A stretch of DNA of 64,000 nucleotides from an uncultured Candidatus Saccharibacteria bacterium (lineage in GTDB: Bacteria > Patescibacteriota > Minisyncoccia > Phycocordibacterales > CAYSCM01): the NCBI GenBank assembly GCA_964429815.1, contig CAYSCM010000001.1, positions 164,240-228,239 on the forward strand, given 5' to 3'. Below are positions 2,347 through 63,999 of the stretch, one piece after another; the first letter of the stretch is position 1; the number at the start of each line of letters is the position of its first letter. A model generated the notes under the pieces. The model made no database searches and was not told the origin of the DNA. It saw only the letters and a list, made by a program, of their open reading frames with translations. The translations under genes and the position numbers were made by a program.

Positions 2347-2925
2347 ATGATCGGCAGATTGCGCGGCACCGTTTCCGGAGGGACGGAGCGGGGCCTCATA
2401 CTCGACGTAGGAGGTGTTGGTTATCGCGTCCACACCAACCCCCAAAGCAGCGCAAAGTGGCGCAAGGAACGCGGTGAGATTGTGCTCTACACCCACCTCG
2501 CGGTCCGCGAGGATTCCCTCGACCTCTATGGGTTTGAGACCGAAGAAGAGCTTTCTTTCTTTGAACTTCTCCTCTCCGTCTCGGGGATTGGGCCCAGGTC
2601 GGCGCTCAGCATTCTCGCGGTTGGAGACATTGGCGCGCTGCGAAGGGCAATCGGCGCGGGCGACACCTCCTACCTCACCAAGATCTCCGGGATCGGCAAA
2701 AAAACCGCGGAGCGTATTATTCTTGATCTTCGCGATAAAGCCGGTGGCGGCTCGGCAGAAGAGGCGGCACAACTGCGCGGCGACGTTGATGTGCTCGAAG
2801 CGCTCCGGGCACTGGGGTATGCCGGCAAAGAGGCCCGAGACGCCGTGGTGAAGGTGAGTCGGGAAGGTATGGATACGAACCAAAAACTCAAGGCGGCCCT
2901 GCGCGAGCTCGGCTCCGGCGTATGA
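2347..2925 (+). CDS. ruvA: Holliday junction DNA helicase subunit RuvA
   Basis: MIGRLRGTV...LDVGGVGYRVH...GIGPRSALSIL...ISGIGKKTAERIILDL (HhH motifs). Confidence 0.9.
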   Translation: MIGRLRGTVSGGTERGLILDVGGVGYRVHTNPQSSAKWRKERGEIVLYTHLAVREDSLDLYGFETEEELSFFELLLSVSGIGPRSALSILAVGDIGALRRAIGAGDTSYLTKISGIGKKTAERIILDLRDKAGGGSAEEAAQLRGDVDVLEALRALGYAGKEARDAVVKVSREGMDTNQKLKAALRELGSGV

Positions 2926-5209: not shown

Positions 5210-5247
5210 ATACTCAAATTCTAAGCTATAGCTTAGAATTTGAGTAT
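5210..5247. repeat. 38-nt perfect AT-rich palindrome, copy 1
   Basis: atactcaaattctaagcta|tagcttagaatttgagtat. A near-identical copy lies at 36497-36534. Confidence 0.85.
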
Positions 5248-6416: not shown

Positions 6417-6490
6417 TCCGCCCGGCAGGACTCGAACCTGCGACCTTCTCCTTAAAAGGGAGCGGCTCTACCAAACTGAGCTACGGGCGG
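6417..6490 (-). tRNA. tRNA-Lys, anticodon TTT
   Basis: 74-nt cloverleaf. CCGCCCG/CGGGCGG acceptor, GCTC/GAGC D-stem, loop CTTTTAA, T-arm GCAGG-TTCGAGT-CCTGC, discriminator A. Confidence 0.9.
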
Positions 6491-12509: not shown

Positions 12510-13001
12510 TTAAAGTTGGATATCCTTCTCCCTCTGGGGAGCCGGATCCGCAACGGGCGGCGTCGGTGCGTCTTCGGAGGTGGGAGGGGGCGGTTCGAAC
12601 TTGGGGACCACCCTCTTATCCGCTGGTGGCGCCTCGAAACGCGGTCGCGCTTCGGGCTCCCCCACGAACGGGATCCGCGGCTCTTCGAGCCGCGGATAGA
12701 ACCGCTGTGTGAAGCAGCTCTGGTTCCACCCACGGTTCGTGGCGGTGTCGTAACGCCGATTCCCTCGTTCGTCGAACCAACGGTTCGACGAACGGTTGTA
12801 GTTTTGGTAATCAGTACATTCCCCGCGGCGGTAGCTATCGCCGCGCCACGCTTCGTAGTCCCTCGTGATGGAGTTGGAGAAGCTCGTATTGGAAGAAACG
12901 AGCCATCCCTGATCCATCAGAAAGCCGTCGACCTGCTGGTCGAAGCCGCTGCACGCGCCGAGCAAAAGCGCGACGAGTGCGAGACAGAGAGTGCGAATCA
13001 T
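12510..13001 (-). CDS. lipoprotein of unknown function
   Basis: Internal ATG at 13001 with GAAGGAGA Shine-Dalgarno. Lipobox MIRTLCLALVALLLGAC. Pro-rich C-terminus. Confidence 0.6.
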   Translation of the reverse strand: MIRTLCLALVALLLGACSGFDQQVDGFLMDQGWLVSSNTSFSNSITRDYEAWRGDSYRRGECTDYQNYNRSSNRWFDERGNRRYDTATNRGWNQSCFTQRFYPRLEEPRIPFVGEPEARPRFEAPPADKRVVPKFEPPPPTSEDAPTPPVADPAPQREKDIQL

Positions 13002-13240
13002 CGATCGTCTCCTTCGAGGTCGAGGCCTGGCGCGAACTCCGCTTGGAACTGCTGCTCGGCGCGGTTGTAGAAGCCGTTGTCCTTCGGCAGCGGCGGGCGA
13101 CGTTCCATTGTAAGTTTCCTGCGTAAGCGCTTGAGGCGCCGTGCGGAGAACTTCTCGAACTCCTTCCGCCGCCTCGCCCGAATAAGGGGTGAGTAGGAGA
13201 TGGAGTCGAGAACGCGTTCCATATTTTCCTGCTTGCTCAT
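12998..13240 (-). CDS. small basic protein (80 aa), translationally coupled to the lipoprotein gene
   Basis: ATG 13240 after GGAGG. ATGA overlap with the downstream gene. MSKQENMERVLDSISYSPLIRARRRKEFEKF... Confidence 0.4.
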   Translation of the reverse strand: MSKQENMERVLDSISYSPLIRARRRKEFEKFSARRLKRLRRKLTMERRPPLPKDNGFYNRAEQQFQAEFAPGLDLEGDDR

Positions 13241-13349
13241 GTGAGCCTCCACTCTGCAAAGAAAAATCTGAGTCAACTAATAGCACATCTTGGCAATTTT
13301 GTCAATAATCCCCTTGGTGCGACCCTCGAAGCGCGCTACGATTAGGAGA

Positions 13350-15020
13350 ATGGCTGTTTTCAATGAGGATAAGGAGCTCCGGAAGCTCTCCGAGCTCCGG
13401 AGCAAAGAGGAAGAGGACCTCGCGCAGCTTCTCTCCCAGAAGTACGGCACGCTCTACGCGGACCTCACGCGCATGTCCATCAATACCGATGCCCTGCGTC
13501 TCATCAAGGAGACGGATGCGCGGGGCGGAAACATCGCCGCTTTTGCGATGGTGGGCAAGAAGCTCTCGGTCGCGGTAAAAAGCCCCCAGACGCTAAAGGT
13601 CGCGGAAATCCTCGAGGAGCTTAAAAAGCGGGGTTTCCTGGTAGACCTCTACATGGTCTCGATGCGAAGCCTCGAGCGCGCGTTTGAGCATTACAAAGAC
13701 CTCTCCTTCGCCACCGAGACCAAGGCGGGGGTGCTCGACATCTCTGGGGAGGAAATCCATCGGCTCCTCGCGGCCATCAAGAGCCTTGCCGACGCCAAGG
13801 GCCAGATCGAAGAACTCCTAAAACAGAAGAAGCTCTACCGCATCAGCCGCATCCTCGAAACGGTGCTTGCCGGCGGCCTCTCGACCGACGCCTCCGACGT
13901 CCACATCGAGCCGCAGGAGGCTGACGTACGTCTGCGGTTCCGCCTCGATGGCGTCCTCACCGACGTTCTCACCTTCGATCGCGAGACATATCAGCTCCTC
14001 CTCTCGCGCATAAAGCTCCTCTCCGGACTCAAATTGAACATCAAAGACGCCGCTCAGGACGGGCGCTTTTCAGTAAAGATAGAAGGGAGCGATATCGAAG
14101 TGCGCACTTCGATACTTCCGGGCGCGTACGGCGAGTCGATAGTGCTGCGCATCTTAAACCCCAACACGATAGGCGTCCCCATGGAGGAGCTCGGCATTCC
14201 AAAAAATCTCCACGTAATTTTGGAGCGAGAAATACGAAAGCCGAACGGCATGATACTCAACACCGGCCCCACGGGCTCGGGCAAAACGACGACGCTCTAC
14301 GCGTTCATGAAAAAGATCCACACGCCCGACATCAAGATAGTCACCATCGAGGACCCCATCGAATACCACCTTAAAGGTGTCGTGCAGACGCAGGTCGAGC
14401 CCAAGTCTTACACGTTCGCGCAGGGGTTGCGCAGCGCGCTGCGCCAAGACCCGGACGTCATTATGATCGGCGAAATTCGCGACGAGGAGGTCGCGGGGGT
14501 CGCCATCAACTCCTCCCTCACCGGACATCTGGTGTTCTCAACGCTCCACACCAACGACGCCGCCGGCGCATTCCCCCGCCTCATCGACCTCGACGTAAAC
14601 CCGAAAATTATCGGCTCGGCGGTCAACATCGTGATGGCGCAGCGCCTCGTGCGGCGGCTCTGTGAGCAGTGTCGAAGAGAAGTGAAGCTCACGGGAGAAG
14701 ACAAAAAACTCATCGAGGAAACCCTCAAAGGCATTGTCGACTCTTCGCTCGTGCCGAAAGAAAAACCGACCGCCTGGGAGGCGGTTGGCTGCGAGGCCTG
14801 TAACGGGAGCGGCTACCGAGGGCGCATCGGCATTTTCGAGGCGATCATCATGGATAAAGGCATCGAAGATAGAGTGGCTGCCTCGGCAAGCGAGCGTGAA
14901 CTAGCCGCGGAAGCGCGTCGACAGAAGATTCTTTCGATGAAAGAGGACGGCGTGCTTAAAGTTCTCTCGGGCGTAACGACGCTTCCCGAGCTTGAGCGAG
15001 TCATCGAAATCCGCGATTAG
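13350..15020 (+). CDS. pilB: type IV pilus / type II secretion family assembly ATPase (PilB/GspE)
   Basis: ATG 13350 after AGGAG. Walker A GPTGSGKTTT, Asp box, His box. C-terminal Cys cluster CEQC...CEACNGSGYRGRIGIFE. Confidence 0.85.
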   Translation: MAVFNEDKELRKLSELRSKEEEDLAQLLSQKYGTLYADLTRMSINTDALRLIKETDARGGNIAAFAMVGKKLSVAVKSPQTLKVAEILEELKKRGFLVDLYMVSMRSLERAFEHYKDLSFATETKAGVLDISGEEIHRLLAAIKSLADAKGQIEELLKQKKLYRISRILETVLAGGLSTDASDVHIEPQEADVRLRFRLDGVLTDVLTFDRETYQLLLSRIKLLSGLKLNIKDAAQDGRFSVKIEGSDIEVRTSILPGAYGESIVLRILNPNTIGVPMEELGIPKNLHVILEREIRKPNGMILNTGPTGSGKTTTLYAFMKKIHTPDIKIVTIEDPIEYHLKGVVQTQVEPKSYTFAQGLRSALRQDPDVIMIGEIRDEEVAGVAINSSLTGHLVFSTLHTNDAAGAFPRLIDLDVNPKIIGSAVNIVMAQRLVRRLCEQCRREVKLTGEDKKLIEETLKGIVDSSLVPKEKPTAWEAVGCEACNGSGYRGRIGIFEAIIMDKGIEDRVAASASERELAAEARRQKILSMKEDGVLKVLSGVTTLPELERVIEIRD

Positions 15021-15060
15021 TCAATTGAAATAGCCGCGTGGAAAGAGTAGCGTAAGGGAA

Positions 15061-15228
15061 GAGTTGAGAGCGCAACCCCCTAAGCAATACTTCTTCAACA
15101 TAAGCGAAGAAGTTGGAAACCTATCTAAGGATAGTCTCCGTACGCGCCATAAAGGGCGACCGAGGCGTCCTCGATTGGCACCAGAAAGCCTAAGAGACCT
15201 ATTGTTTAGGGGGCTGTGAGCTCAACTC
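15061..15228 (+). ncRNA. candidate structured RNA of unknown class (multi-helix)
   Basis: Closing helices gagttgag(15061-68)/ctcaactc(15221-28) and ccccctaagcaata(15076-89)/tattgtttaggggg(15200-13, one G-U). These enclose at least five local hairpins. See findings. Confidence 0.35.
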
Positions 15229-15301
15229 GCGCACGTTTTAAAAATACTTTCGCAAACGTATCGAAATCTGCGTGAAAAGACTCTAGCACGATATTAATAT
15301 T

Positions 15302-16342
15302 ATGTCAAGTAAGCGGGGCGCAGCAGAAAGCGGAAACCCCTCCCCCAAGGAGGAACGCCATCTCGACCAAACGCTACGGCCGACGAAGTTTTCCGAGTAC
15401 ATCGGCCAGAAGGCCGTTATGGAAAACCTCCGCATTCTCCTCACCGCGGCCAAGGAGCGCGAGCACCCACCGGAGCACCTTCTCTTTTATGGCCCACCGG
15501 GTCTTGGGAAGACGACGCTCGCACACCTCGTTGCCAAGGAGCTTGGCGTCGGATTTAAGACGACCTCAGGACCGGCGATTGAAAAGGTGGGCGATCTGGC
15601 CGCTATTCTCTCCAACCTCACGCCAAACGATATTCTCTTTATTGATGAGGTTCACCGCCTCAACAAAGCCATCGAAGAGGTCCTCTACCCCGCAATGGAA
15701 AGCGGCGTGCTTGACATCATTATAGGTAAAGGCCCCTCCGCGCGCACCATTCAACTGGAACTTCCTCCGTTCACACTCGTCGCGGCAACAACCCGCATCG
15801 CCGATCTCTCTGCCCCGCTGCGCTCTCGCTTTTCAGGCGGCATGTTCCGACTTGAGTTTTATACAGAAAAAGAAATCGAGGAGATTCTCGCGCGCTCGGC
15901 AGGCATTTTAGGGATCGCGCCTTCGCGGGAGTCACTCGCTGCGATCGCTTCACGCGCTCGCGCGACACCACGTACGGGCAACTACCTACTCAAGCGCGCC
16001 CGCGACTTCGCGCAGGTGCATAAGCGCGACCTCACGCCGCAGCTTGTCGCCGAAGCGCTCAACCTCCTCGGTATCGACGAGCTTGGTCTCACTCCGGCCG
16101 ATCGGCACGTGCTCACTACCCTCATCGATAAGTTTGGTGGGGGTCCTGTGGGACTTTCGACGATCGCTGCAGCAACCAGCGAAGAGGAGGCGACTATCGA
16201 GGAAGTCTACGAACCCTACCTTATTCAATTGGGACTTCTTGAGCGCACGCCGCGAGGGCGCAGGACCACAGCTCAGGGAGCCGCTCACATCGAAAAAGCG
16301 GCTCCGCGAGGGCGGCGCATGGGTCAGGGGAAGTTGGTGTAA
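15302..16342 (+). CDS. ruvB: Holliday junction branch migration helicase RuvB
   Basis: LLFYGPPGLGKTTLAHLVAKELG, DEVHRL, winged-helix C-terminus. Confidence 0.95.
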   Translation: MSSKRGAAESGNPSPKEERHLDQTLRPTKFSEYIGQKAVMENLRILLTAAKEREHPPEHLLFYGPPGLGKTTLAHLVAKELGVGFKTTSGPAIEKVGDLAAILSNLTPNDILFIDEVHRLNKAIEEVLYPAMESGVLDIIIGKGPSARTIQLELPPFTLVAATTRIADLSAPLRSRFSGGMFRLEFYTEKEIEEILARSAGILGIAPSRESLAAIASRARATPRTGNYLLKRARDFAQVHKRDLTPQLVAEALNLLGIDELGLTPADRHVLTTLIDKFGGGPVGLSTIAAATSEEEATIEEVYEPYLIQLGLLERTPRGRRTTAQGAAHIEKAAPRGRRMGQGKLV

Positions 16343-16384
16343 GCCTAGTTGAACGAGAGAGGAATTTCCGTATACTCTATTGCC

Positions 16385-16915
16385 ATGAGCGGACACAGTA
16401 AGTGGGCCAAAATTAAGCACAAAAAAGCCATAACTGACGCTAAGAAAAGTAAGGCGTTTGGGAAGATTGTGCGTTTTCTTACCGTTGAATCAAAAAAGGC
16501 GAAGGGCGATGTAAACGCCCCAGGCCTTCGCGTTGCCATTGAAAAAGCAAAGGCCAACAATGTGCCCGGCGATACCATTGAGCGAGCTATTTCTAAGGGT
16601 AAAACCGATACCGGAGCGATTATGAATGAGGTCACCTTCGAAGCATACGGCCCGGGAGGGGTAGCTCTCATCATCGAAGGACTTACCGACAACAATAACC
16701 GCACCAGCCAGGAGGTAAAGCAGGTGCTTAGCAAGAACGGCTCCTCACTTGCTGCACAAGGAAGCGCCAGTTGGGCATTTTCCCGTGAAGGGCGCGAGTG
16801 GAAACCTTCGACCATGGTTTCCATTTCGGAAGAAGACGGCGGAAAACTGGAAAACCTCGTCGACGCACTCGAAGATCTCGACGACATCCAGGAGGTATAC
16901 ACGAACGCGGAGTAA
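16385..16915 (+). CDS. yebC: YebC/PmpR-family protein (short, 176 aa)
   Basis: MSGHSKWAKIKHKKAITDAKKSKAFGK... from the internal ATG at 16385. Confidence 0.85.
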   Translation: MSGHSKWAKIKHKKAITDAKKSKAFGKIVRFLTVESKKAKGDVNAPGLRVAIEKAKANNVPGDTIERAISKGKTDTGAIMNEVTFEAYGPGGVALIIEGLTDNNNRTSQEVKQVLSKNGSSLAAQGSASWAFSREGREWKPSTMVSISEEDGGKLENLVDALEDLDDIQEVYTNAE

Positions 16916-62739: not shown

Positions 62740-62811
62740 GCCCCCGTGGTGAAATGGATATCACAACTGGCTTCGGACCAGTTATTGTGGGTTCGAGTCC
62801 TGCCGGGGGCG
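62740..62811 (+). tRNA. tRNA-Arg, anticodon TCG
   Basis: 72-nt cloverleaf. GCCCCCG/CGGGGGC, GTGA/TCAC, ACTGG-CTTCGGA-CCAGT, T-arm GTGGG-TTCGAGT-CCTGC, discriminator G. Confidence 0.85.
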
Positions 62812-63014: not shown

Positions 63015-63085
63015 GCGGCCATAGTTTAGTGGTAGGACGGATCCTTGCCAAGGATCAGGTGGGAGTTCGATTCTCCCTGGCCGCA
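63015..63085 (+). tRNA. tRNA-Gly, anticodon GCC
   Basis: 71-nt cloverleaf. GCGGCCA/TGGCCGC, GATCC-TTGCCAA-GGATC, T-arm GGGAG-TTCGATT-CTCCC, discriminator A. Upstream TTGAGA-16nt-TATAGT promoter-like site. Confidence 0.9.
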
Positions 63086-63926: not shown

Positions 63927-63999
63927 CGGGGCGTGGTGTAACGGCTAACATACCCGCTTTGGGAGCGGGCGACTCCCGGTTCGAATCCGGGCGCCCCGA
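63927..63999 (+). tRNA. tRNA-Pro, anticodon TGG
   Basis: 73-nt cloverleaf. CGGGGCG/CGCCCCG (C1-G72), CCCGC-TTTGGGA-GCGGG, T-arm CCCGG-TTCGAAT-CCGGG, discriminator A. Ends one base before the window edge. Confidence 0.9.

Follow-up and report, generated by a model that had tools for sequence, protein, structure and literature searches.

In the window (the whole 64-kb stretch of DNA that was analysed), ruvB lies directly after a pilB-type ATPase gene and is the first gene of an operon with the order ruvB–yebC–ruvC, YebC and RuvC having been identified downstream. The 281-nt spacer between pilB and ruvB is strongly structured. On the plus strand it folds to −91.1 kcal/mol, compared with −68.5 ± 4.4 kcal/mol for dinucleotide shuffles (z = −5.1), and 0 of 200 shuffles fold as stably; for the minus strand, z = −3.9. 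Its inverted repeats are I1, with arms of 34 nt (15061–15094 and 15195–15228), and I6 (15089–15096 and 15106–15113), and the element occurs once in the 64 kb.

The original prediction placed an unclassified multi-helix RNA of about 170 nt in this spacer. The long-range complementary segments that it listed are all present (15061–15068 with 15221–15228, and 15076–15089 with 15200–15213, including one G–T), and the folding statistics, the conservation of helices in relatives and the lack of an Rfam match bear out a genuine unclassified RNA of that size. The local hairpins proposed for its interior fared less well: all of the segments exist, namely cttcttc/gaagaag, ctatc/gatag, tctc/gaga, ccgagg/cctcg and ttggc/gcctaa, but the ctatc/gatag and ccgagg/cctcg pairings are not kept in relatives, which pair AGGA (15128–15131) with TCCT (15168–15171) instead. 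We conclude that the element is the predicted core of a discrete, highly structured non-coding small-RNA gene on the minus strand, opposite ruvB (Table 1).

Table 1. Genes, RNA elements and promoter elements at the pilB–ruvB locus (window coordinates)
Feature	Position	Strand	Evidence or remark
pilB-type (T2SSE) ATPase gene	13290–15020	+	Pfam T2SSE, E = 2e-114; convergent with the RNA gene
Conserved core, 168 nt (P1, variable P2, long P3 arm, P4)	15061–15228	−	Covariance models, covariation
P1, 3′ arm	15061–15088	−	Pairs with 15201–15228; no U-tract after it in the window
P4 hairpin, CUUCUUC.../...GAAGAAG plus closing A–U	15089–15113	−	Inverted repeat I6, helix map
J3/4, 3′ junction strand	15114–15127	−	14 nt in 94 of 98; sequence variable
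P3 arm	15128–15171	−	P3a, P3b and apical hairpin
P3a, AGGA/UCCU	15171–15168 with 15131–15128	−	Invariant in 99 of 99 sequences
P3b	15166–15159 with 15141–15134	−	8 pairs, 5 changed on both sides
P3 apical hairpin	15158–15142	−	Part of the P3 arm
P2 region and 5′ junction strand	15172–15200	−	Hairpin optional; 13–38 nt in the family
P1, 5′ arm	15201–15228	−	Pairs with 15061–15088
Predicted 5′ leader, about 45 nt	15229–15273	−	Start placed from promoter geometry; small hairpin at 15272–15251
Extended −10, TG-c-TAGAGT	15280–15288	−	Promoter scan of the window
−35 hexamer, TTGACA	15303–15308	−	Reverse complement of ruvB bases 2–7 (aTGTCAAg)
ruvB	15302–16342	+	Pfam RuvB_N, AAA_lid_4, RuvB_C; same start in an independent gene call

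A single-copy family linked to ruvB

Two covariance models, R1 and R2, together define about 135 copies of the family among Patescibacteria genomes and metagenomes. R1 was built on the plus (ruvB-sense) strand and gives the window 138.9 bits; R2 matches it on the minus strand (15055–15232) with 115.7 bits. Matches to R1 comprise loci L001–L023 and L027 as well as nearly all metagenome pattern matches, and R2 gains two loci over R1 (L014 and L043). R2 found no element at 55 further ruvB loci, of which 51 belong to other phyla and 4 (L024, L025, L028 and L052) are Patescibacteria-like. Many of the matches came from groundwater sites, and the exact ruvB of the window is also present in the samples behind SRR12313482 and SRR12313479.

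The association with ruvB is strict. ruvB lies downstream on the ruvB-sense side in 95 of 95 true matches with more than 500 nt of room, and none of the 13 pattern matches without ruvB is supported by the covariance model. pilB is the usual rather than an obligatory neighbour: among the 96 metagenome loci with room for it, 70 have it upstream and co-oriented with ruvB, and four loci (L005, L008, L020 and L021) carry other genes there. As judged from these comparisons, the small-RNA gene is present in single copy across a class-level clade of Patescibacteria, immediately 5′ of ruvB and pointing away from it. Viral contigs gave one chance match to the family pattern and chance matches alone to the P1 14-mer; the P3-core pattern matched 17 times there, and two of these matches reached no more than weak partial model scores.

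Strand, architecture and covariation

The three G–U pairs of the window copy fit the plus strand, as the original prediction had pointed out for one of them, and the element is equally stable on both strands (−73.9 kcal/mol each). Across the family the asymmetry is reversed. When the alignment is fitted to the ruvB-sense strand, A–C and C–A combinations outnumber G–U and U–G pairs (345 versus 218, 98 of the latter from one invariant column pair); an antisense fit gives 521 G–U and U–G pairs versus 99 A–C and C–A combinations. The antisense fold is the stabler one in 94 of 100 copies, with a mean gain of 13.3 kcal/mol, and family z-scores are −7.4 for antisense versus −6.0 for sense, the antisense value being lower in 25 of 34 copies. 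We abandoned the plus-strand reading of R1 because of the excess of A–C mismatches in its alignment. A wobble-pair asymmetry between strands implies a single-stranded RNA, and we assign this RNA to the minus strand because the wobble statistics, the folding energies, the consensus promoter and the U-tracts described below all indicate it, contrary to the strand first proposed.

In the antisense alignment 93.1% of cells are paired, and 35 of the 42 pairs are altered on both sides, which 0 of 500 shuffles equal; slid controls have 35–53% of cells paired. These abundant compensatory changes establish the conservation of helices in relatives that had been suggested as a check. The core measures 143–189 nt across the family. 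P1 has 25 modelled pairs (about 25–27 bp in the family), with 95% of cells paired and both-side changes in 24, and all 5 modelled pairs of P4 have changed on both sides. P3b carries a conserved tandem U–G/G–U that adjoins an invariant G–C, and contains two mismatches in the window. The P2 hairpin is missing from L019, L022, L020 and L161, and the fold of L019 indicates that such members form a tight three-way junction. Support for the P2 and P3-apex hairpins comes from per-sequence folds, MAFFT/RNAalifold having given no consensus over these variable parts; the apical loops are of stable UUCG/GNRA type.

The last 13 nt of the P2 region (J2/3) co-evolve a weak pairing with J3/4. Cognate duplexes average −5.6 kcal/mol versus −2.8 kcal/mol for non-cognate ones and are lower in 79 of 98 cases, and the outer positions of the junction strands pair as U–A, R–U and N–Y. 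An extension helix in fixed register, P3.0, had 45% of its cells paired and was dropped as a regular helix; the junction pairing is real but irregular.

Promoter and predicted transcript ends

A near-consensus sigma-70 promoter is predicted to drive the RNA from the minus strand. The promoter scan of the window returned 2 sites in total, versus 0.2 expected, and placed this one at 15308..15280 (TTGACA-17-TAGAGT, 10 of 12 matches, with TG). The AT-rich, promoter-like stretch originally noted before ruvB does contain a promoter, but one on the minus strand that would drive the RNA and whose −35 hexamer overlaps the ruvB start codon. A perfect TTGACA with a TG-extended TAnnnT points into the element at 94 of 100 loci. 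Among 99 relatives, the −35 hexamer is TTGACA in 96 and is preceded by ATG in 87, the spacer is 17 nt in 90 and 16 nt in 9, and TG-n-TAnnnT was found in 97. Of 25 ruvB loci with the RNA, 20 have the promoter motif, compared with 1 of 55 without it. On the other strand, the −35 hexamer falls within the first three codons of ruvB, whose second codon is TCA in about 96% of loci. The overlap with the start codon is not universal, because at L025 the promoter lies clear of it.

Transcription would start at about 15273, some 7 nt past the −10 hexamer; across the family, 6–183 nt (median 47) separate the end of this hexamer from the element. At the other end, P1 runs straight into a U-tract (at least 6 in 8) in 54 of 98 relatives, so in about half of them P1 would double as a terminator stem, and a separate hairpin-plus-U terminator occurs in 20 further loci of the 98. 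U-rich stretches follow P1 in 57 antisense flanks versus 15 sense flanks. The window copy has no U-tract or recognisable terminator after P1 on the minus strand.

On the plus strand, the window scan found no promoter for ruvB, and there is no terminator in 14900–15450. Of 99 loci, 52 have a plus-strand TGnTAnnnT in the stretch from the element to ruvB, 45–68 nt before the ATG, and in 30 loci this facing −10 site reads TGCTATAAT; such sites would yield predicted 5′ overlaps of about 10–30 nt. Upstream of the element, plus-strand promoter scores are no better than those of shuffled sequence (6.6 versus 7.0). A few clades have promoter-like sites there, TGCTATAGT in L019 and L022 and TTGCCT-17-TAsTAT in L104, L118 and L176; in these clades, transcription may thus involve the plus strand as well. 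We also considered whether AGTnTAGCAYA might serve generally as a promoter or operator on the plus strand and rejected this: the motif is unrepeated in the window, its sixth −10 position is C or G in about one-third of loci, and its region, read on the minus strand, is the invariant TG-n-TAnnnT.

Comparison with known RNA families

The Rfam check suggested with the original prediction gave no match for the element at either the gathering or a permissive threshold. Across the whole window, Rfam 15 at the gathering threshold returned 5 tRNAs and nothing else. At E ≤ 10, one chance match to rli42 appeared in 14950–15350 (12.5 bits versus 80 needed), and no family recurred over the element in 20 homologous loci; there was no match to 6S RNA even at this threshold. 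Lui et al. (2021, PMC8172020) report that the RNase P RNAs of these bacteria, although diverged, can be recovered with RF00010 once thresholds are lowered; we rejected RNase P as no comparable match was obtained over 14950–15350 at E ≤ 10. The searchable literature held nothing relevant on a ruvB-associated or Patescibacteria small RNA. The small RNA beside ruvB is thus a family without an earlier description in Rfam 15 or that literature.

Proposed function

We favour reciprocal control with the ruvB–yebC–ruvC operon, a protein-binding role, or both, as inferred from sequence. The explanation that we consider best, and on the whole probable, is a minus-strand small RNA with a promoter that faces ruvB, expressed reciprocally with it, possibly forming double-stranded RNA and serving as a protein platform. 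With a consensus promoter, the RNA is expected to be abundant and stable. The promoter footprint would span the ruvB start and, in many relatives, would face a plus-strand extended −10; with RNA polymerase on one of the two facing promoters at a time, expression of the RNA and of ruvB–yebC–ruvC would be reciprocal. Plus-strand transcripts that enter ruvB from upstream, for example by read-through from pilB in the window, would moreover be complementary to the RNA, and the resulting double-stranded RNA could be exposed to RNase III. A protein-binding platform would most likely be formed by the conserved P3 core together with the inner part of P1.

Several features shape this proposal. No plus-strand ruvB promoter was found in the window, so the face-to-face arrangement is hypothetical at this locus. 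The predicted RNA start is about 29 nt upstream of the ruvB ATG, which leaves the ribosome-binding region uncovered and makes a simple block of translation by antisense pairing unlikely. The 3′ end of pilB is convergent, so there is nothing downstream on the RNA's own strand for it to regulate. Promoter interference would not call for so elaborate a conserved structure, which suggests that the RNA product has a further function. We regard it as possible, though less probable than not by a clear measure, that the family represents a new class of abundant, protein-binding stable RNA in Paceibacteria-type Patescibacteria, a housekeeping RNA or global regulator with output reciprocal to ruvB–yebC–ruvC through the shared promoter region. 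One version is that the junction and long duplex arms could act as a decoy that titrates RNA polymerase, RNase III or a Holliday-junction protein.

Alternative explanations

The alternative to which we give most weight, while doubting it, is that the RNA acts in trans as a housekeeping RNA or global regulator of a new class (sequestering a protein or forming part of a ribonucleoprotein, possibly as a 6S analogue that binds RNA polymerase). Its link to ruvB would then be purely architectural, the promoter being fixed within the start of ruvB. A near-consensus promoter at 94 of 100 loci is what is expected for abundant stable RNAs, and single-copy conservation across a whole class with very small genomes, a structure in excess of what promoter interference needs, UUCG/GNRA-type loops, a length of 145–190 nt, two extended helical arms and a junction strand of constant 14-nt length all agree with such a role; moreover, no 6S RNA is described for Patescibacteria in the searchable literature. 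However, the linkage to ruvB is absolute, tighter than the synteny of pilB and ruvB, and it persists in L025, whose promoter misses the start codon. The 6S version in particular conflicts with the Rfam result at E ≤ 10, with the P2-less members that have a tight three-way junction (L019) and with the co-evolution of the junction strands to pair, which leaves no persistent open bubble.

A structured RNA on the plus strand is very unlikely, whether it is read as a cis-regulatory 5′ leader of ruvB, as a riboswitch or as a small RNA in the pilB–ruvB spacer. The constant position and orientation of the element just upstream of ruvB would fit such an RNA, as would the G–U pairs and the lower plus-strand z-score (−5.1 versus −3.9) of the window copy and the promoter-like sites upstream of the element in a few clades, but family-wide the plus strand has more A–C mismatches than G–U pairs and is less stable in 94 of 100 copies, and its upstream promoter scores stay at the shuffled level. 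We rejected a riboswitch or 5′ leader because the opposite strand is favoured, no plus-strand terminator or other expression platform is present and a P1 of 27 bp is far too stable as a switching helix; the spacer to ruvB is itself taken up by the opposite-strand consensus promoter. With promoter and RNA both on the minus strand, the element would be neither a plus-strand leader nor an independent plus-strand transcript. Even more improbable is a DNA-level or trivial element, that is, a bidirectional terminator, a cruciform, a protein-binding inverted repeat, a MITE or REP, or a small-protein gene. Although the inverted repeat with 34-nt arms and the terminator-like P1 and U-tract of about half of the relatives invite such a reading, it is largely refuted by the covariation of the interior helices P3 and P4, which neither a terminator nor a cruciform needs and which upholds the original remark that there is more structure here than in a terminator. 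The window copy, which lacks a U-tract, does not fit a plain intrinsic terminator either, and the wobble asymmetry, implying single-stranded RNA, opposes any DNA-level element. A mobile element, MITE or REP was rejected given one copy in 64 kb at a fixed position that constantly adjoins ruvB. The 51-codon TTG-initiated open reading frame of the window (15064–15219), the conservation of which would have spoken for a protein, is not conserved and has no Pfam match. Only 15 of 98 sequences in sense and 20 of 98 in antisense contain an open stretch of 50 codons or more, and element lengths are spread evenly modulo 3 (32/34/32) rather than being multiples of three. The comparative evidence leads us to conclude that the element is a new, discrete small-RNA gene and that it is neither a leader of ruvB nor a terminator nor a gene for a peptide.

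Relation to known systems and significance

As a minus-strand small RNA facing ruvB, the predicted transcript resembles RNA-OUT/RNA-IN of IS10 and RNA I/RNA II of ColE1, which are cis-encoded antisense RNAs with face-to-face promoters. It shares with them a strong promoter that lies within the partner gene or at its 5′ end and is directed outward, a (here predicted) small-RNA product that is stable and extensively base-paired, two promoters too close for joint occupancy and, in about half of the loci, predicted 5′ ends that overlap by about 10–30 nt. Unlike these systems, the ruvB-linked RNA is larger and more elaborate (a three- or four-way junction, about 170 nt), leaves the ribosome-binding site and start codon of ruvB uncovered, and is chromosomal, single-copy and conserved class-wide; in the window, the scan found no plus-strand promoter that would give an overlapping ruvB transcript.

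Similarities to 6S RNA (RF00013 and relatives) are its size of about 150–190 nt, a long closing stem and a second long, irregular arm (P1 of about 25–27 bp; P3 of 4 + 8 bp and an apical hairpin), hairpins in the central region, a strong sigma-70 promoter and lineage-wide occurrence in single copy. In contrast to 6S RNA, there is no covariance-model match, the central strands co-evolve to pair where 6S RNA has an open bubble of 13–15 nt, P1 is nearly perfect where the closing stem of 6S RNA is bulged, and linkage to ruvB is strict. The position just upstream of a gene, the multi-helix junction and the conserved internal-loop nucleotides recall riboswitches and 5′ leaders, from which the element differs in its strand, the lack of an expression platform and the 27 bp of P1.

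Patescibacteria (the candidate phyla radiation) comprise a large share of bacterial diversity, have tiny genomes and are believed to rely on taking up and recombining DNA; to our knowledge, almost none of their regulation has been characterised experimentally. As far as we know, and as far as the searchable literature goes, this would be the first lineage-specific small-RNA family described for the group. A strongly structured, class-wide family with a textbook-perfect promoter is a concrete target for strand-specific metatranscriptomics and for work on the few cultured members, and the covariance model can be used to annotate Patescibacteria genomes. The obligatory pairing with the Holliday-junction motor operon ruvB–yebC–ruvC, together with the usual pilus- or competence-type ATPase neighbour, provides a direct lead to the regulation of recombination.

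Comparative genomics has also turned up orphan structured small RNAs specific to single lineages, such as the Chloroflexi-1 and Bacteroidales-1 type motifs in Rfam. These are likewise defined solely by covariation, have their own promoter and often an intrinsic terminator, and are confined to one phylum or class. The present family matches none of them in sequence or structure, and its fixed partner gene is unusual among them. It also differs in having the −35 hexamer embedded in the first codons of that gene, an example of dual coding in which a promoter element constrains the start of an essential gene.

A structured RNA between pilB and ruvB

The spacer between the pilB-type gene and ruvB folds at −91.1 kcal/mol, compared with −68.5 ± 4.4 kcal/mol for its dinucleotide shuffles (z = −5.1), and none of 200 shuffles folds as well; the reverse strand of the spacer gives z = −3.9. 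All of the complementary segments listed in the original prediction, which proposed an unclassified multi-helix RNA on the plus strand, were found in place. A search of the whole window against Rfam 15 returned five tRNAs and no other match, and even a permissive Rfam scan of the spacer gave no meaningful match. Taken with the fold z-score and the covariation in the family, this upholds the claim of a real, unclassified structured RNA. The 64-kb window holds one copy of the element (core 15061–15228).

Features of the locus and of the predicted RNA (window coordinates)
Feature	Position	Strand	Remarks
ruvA	2347–2910	+	tblastn 42% identity, E = 2e-39
T2SSE/PilB-type ATPase gene	13290–15020		Pfam E = 2e-114
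Spacer between pilB-type gene and ruvB	15021–15301
ruvB	15302–16342
yebC	16349–16915		next after ruvB
tRNA genes	1023–1094, 6417–6490, 62740–62811, 63015–63085, 63927–63999		sole Rfam matches in the window
Predicted promoter, TTGACA-17-TAGAGT with TG	15308..15280	−	independent promoter scan of the window
Small hairpin CGCAGAU...GUUUGCG, then AAAGUAUUUU	15251–15272	−	in predicted 5′ leader
P1 helix	15228–15201 with 15088–15061	−	about 25–27 bp
P2 region	15200–15172	−	13–38 nt; hairpin optional
P3 arm	15171–15128	−
J3/4 (strand joining P3 and P4)	15127–15114	−	14 nt in 94/98
P4 hairpin	15113–15089	−	both-side changes in all 5 modelled pairs

A protein-coding reading was rejected. Only 15 of 98 copies in sense and 20 of 98 in antisense have an open stretch of 50 codons or more, element lengths are evenly spread modulo 3, and gene callers placed nothing in the spacer; the open reading frame that the original prediction had named as a possible refutation is not conserved. 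Upstream of pilB, a 258-codon open reading frame on the minus strand (12510–13286) has no Pfam match.

A family linked to ruvB

The RuvB of the window is closest to those of Patescibacteria MAGs (62–73% identity), the labels of which include Paceibacteria, Minisyncoccia, Nomurabacteria, Kaiserbacteria, Zambryskibacteria and Ryanbacteria. Homologues of the element were found at two loci by profile search of ruvB-upstream DNA and at three more by pattern search. A covariance model of the ruvB-sense strand made from six copies (R1) matches directly upstream of ruvB at loci L001–L023 and L027, and a pattern scan of metagenome contigs gave at least 120 loci. Among the matches listed, the strong model matches comprise nearly all of the metagenome pattern loci, and the 13 pattern loci that fail the model are exactly those without a ruvB neighbour; in all 95 hits with room, ruvB keeps one side and one orientation relative to the element, and in 70 of 96 loci a pilB-type gene flanks the element on its other side. 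Several genomes carry other genes in place of the pilB-type neighbour. Within the window, R1 also weakly matches both strands of an AT-rich palindromic hairpin at 5211–5246 (28% G+C; 18.4 bits, E = 0.018), which is probably an unrelated terminator-like stem.

A model of the antisense strand (R2) had no match beside 55 other ruvB genes, 51 from Chloroflexota, Bacillota and other phyla and four Patescibacteria-like (L024, L025, L028 and L052); L025 has a diverged copy that the model missed. Diverged copies lie at L014:~2690–2790, L025:~2310–2480, L027:2715–2892 and L043:1961–2143. No Patescibacteria small RNA or ruvB-associated RNA turned up in literature searches, and the family appears to be undescribed.

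The RNA is absent from the classical operon, in which ruvA is directly upstream of ruvB. Across 80 genome loci, adjacency of ruvA and ruvB is confined to those that lack the RNA; in RNA-bearing loci ruvA lies elsewhere (about 12 kb from ruvB in the window), which argues that the RNA-bearing lineage broke the classical ruvA–ruvB operon. Downstream of ruvB, yebC is followed by ruvC (window 15302–16915 and beyond; L339:3001–5090), placing the RNA at the head of a ruvB–yebC–ruvC operon.

The RNA is probably encoded on the minus strand

In the ruvB-sense alignment, 86.7% of cells are paired and covariation is clear, but A–C/C–A combinations (345) outnumber G–U/U–G (218, of which 98 come from one invariant column pair). 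Because A–C on one strand is G–U on the other, this excess points to the antisense strand. When both strands of each copy were folded, the antisense was more stable in 94 of 100 copies, by a mean of 13.3 kcal/mol, of which base composition accounts for approximately 5 kcal/mol; its z-score is −7.4 versus −6.0 for the sense strand, and it is lower in 25 of 34 copies. In the R2 alignment, 93.1% of cells are paired, G–U/U–G combinations number 521 against 99 A–C/C–A, and 35 of 42 pairs change on both sides, so that covariation is borne out in relatives; none of 500 shuffles matches the observed values, and slid controls are 35–53% paired.

We therefore consider it highly probable, from this comparative evidence, that the element is a minus-strand small-RNA gene. 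Wobble counts across the family, fold energies, z-scores and R2 all speak against the plus strand that was originally assigned on a single G–U pair; that pair was misleading because the window copy is G+C-rich and both of its strands fold at −73.9 kcal/mol.

Five loci (L104, L118, L176, L117 and L139) carry a ruvB-sense promoter-like motif (TTGCCT or TTGCAA, 16–17 nt, TAsTAT). This motif lies 20–40 nt before the element and is clade-specific, not general across the family; in some lineages, transcription of the ruvB-sense strand may also run through the element.

A predicted promoter over the ruvB start codon

Locus flanks share a conserved string at the start of ruvB, A-NNN-TAGCA-N13-ATGTCAAG. 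Its reverse complement (TTGACA, a 17-nt spacer ending in TGC, then TAnnnT) is a predicted consensus sigma-70 promoter with an extended −10. Of 100 loci, 94 have the perfect TTGACA, TG and TAnnnT combination; the spacer measures 17 nt at 90 loci and 16 nt at 9. ATG precedes the −35 hexamer in 87 of 99 loci, and the hexamer therefore occupies the ruvB start codon and codons 2–3. The second codon reads TCA at about 96% of loci, a constraint at the DNA level. The motif occurs at 20 of 25 RNA-bearing ruvB loci versus 1 of 55 others, the one being L025, where the consensus promoter is placed about 90 nt upstream of the ruvB ORF and does not overlap its start. The original prediction misread the promoter-like stretch before ruvB, which contains a predicted consensus promoter on the minus strand.

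The −10 hexamer and the structured core are separated by 6 to 183 nt (median 47). The leader hairpin of the window copy was flagged as terminator-like by the scan, at a count that is at chance level. An antisense U-tract directly follows P1 in 54 of 98 loci, and 20 more have a separate hairpin-plus-U terminator; a scan of the window found neither for its copy, so the 3′ end of that RNA is uncertain. In L004, a perfect DnaA-box-like 9-mer (TTATCCACA), seen by eye only, precedes the element by about 25 nt in the ruvB-sense direction. Sequence analysis shows the predicted RNA gene to be discrete, single-copy and on the minus strand; it carries a consensus promoter, often ends in an intrinsic terminator and is obligatorily linked to ruvB.

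Architecture and relation to known RNAs

Overall, P1 and P3 make up a long rod, from which one or two side hairpins project at a tight junction. The inner P1 sequence, CUCUAAGCAAU/AUUGYUUAGAG, is nearly invariant in the main clade and gives way to fully compensated variants in L014, L025, L027 and L043 (for example, CUCUGGGCAAU/AUUGCCCAGAG in L027). P3 combines an invariant AGGA/UCCU helix, a C-versus-UA internal loop and an 8-bp helix with a conserved tandem U–G/G–U beside an invariant G–C; its apical hairpin is variable, with loops often of UUCG or GNRA type. The strands flanking P3 co-evolve as a weak, irregular helix (means of −5.6 kcal/mol for cognate versus −2.8 kcal/mol for non-cognate strands); when a single fixed register was imposed on them, 45% of cells were paired.

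6S RNA is architecturally closest, in size, two long arms and a strong promoter, but the RNA has no match to the 6S model and lacks the open central bubble that 6S RNA requires. RNase P was rejected: the RNA has no RNase P match, although RF00010 with lowered thresholds still recovers the diverged RNase P RNAs of these bacteria (PMC8172020).

Possible regulation of ruvB

In 52 of 99 loci the interval from the element to ruvB contains a plus-strand extended −10 (TGnTAnnnT), mostly 45–68 nt before the ruvB ATG; its sequence is TGCTATAAT in 30 of 99. The TGCTATAAT site and the RNA promoter form an inverted repeat (ATGCTATA...TATAGCAT). Perfect copies of this site face the RNA promoter in L005, L007, L008, L009, L015, L016, L110 and others.

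We tentatively propose, with modest confidence, a mechanism in which the RNA would be abundant and stable and its promoter would leave a footprint over the ruvB start. Given how close the facing plus-strand extended −10 lies, only one of the two promoters would be occupied at a time; the RNA and the ruvB–yebC–ruvC operon would be expressed reciprocally, and their transcripts would overlap by about 10–30 nt at their 5′ ends. In mechanism, the nearest known systems are cis-antisense RNAs whose promoters face each other, IS10 RNA-OUT and ColE1 RNA I among them. Interference alone fails to explain the elaborate, conserved P3 core, which suggests that a protein partner may bind it. No plus-strand promoter or terminator was detected between pilB and ruvB in the window; ruvB might be reached there by read-through from pilB, and the RNA, fully complementary to the pilB–ruvB intercistronic RNA, would then form RNase III substrates with it.
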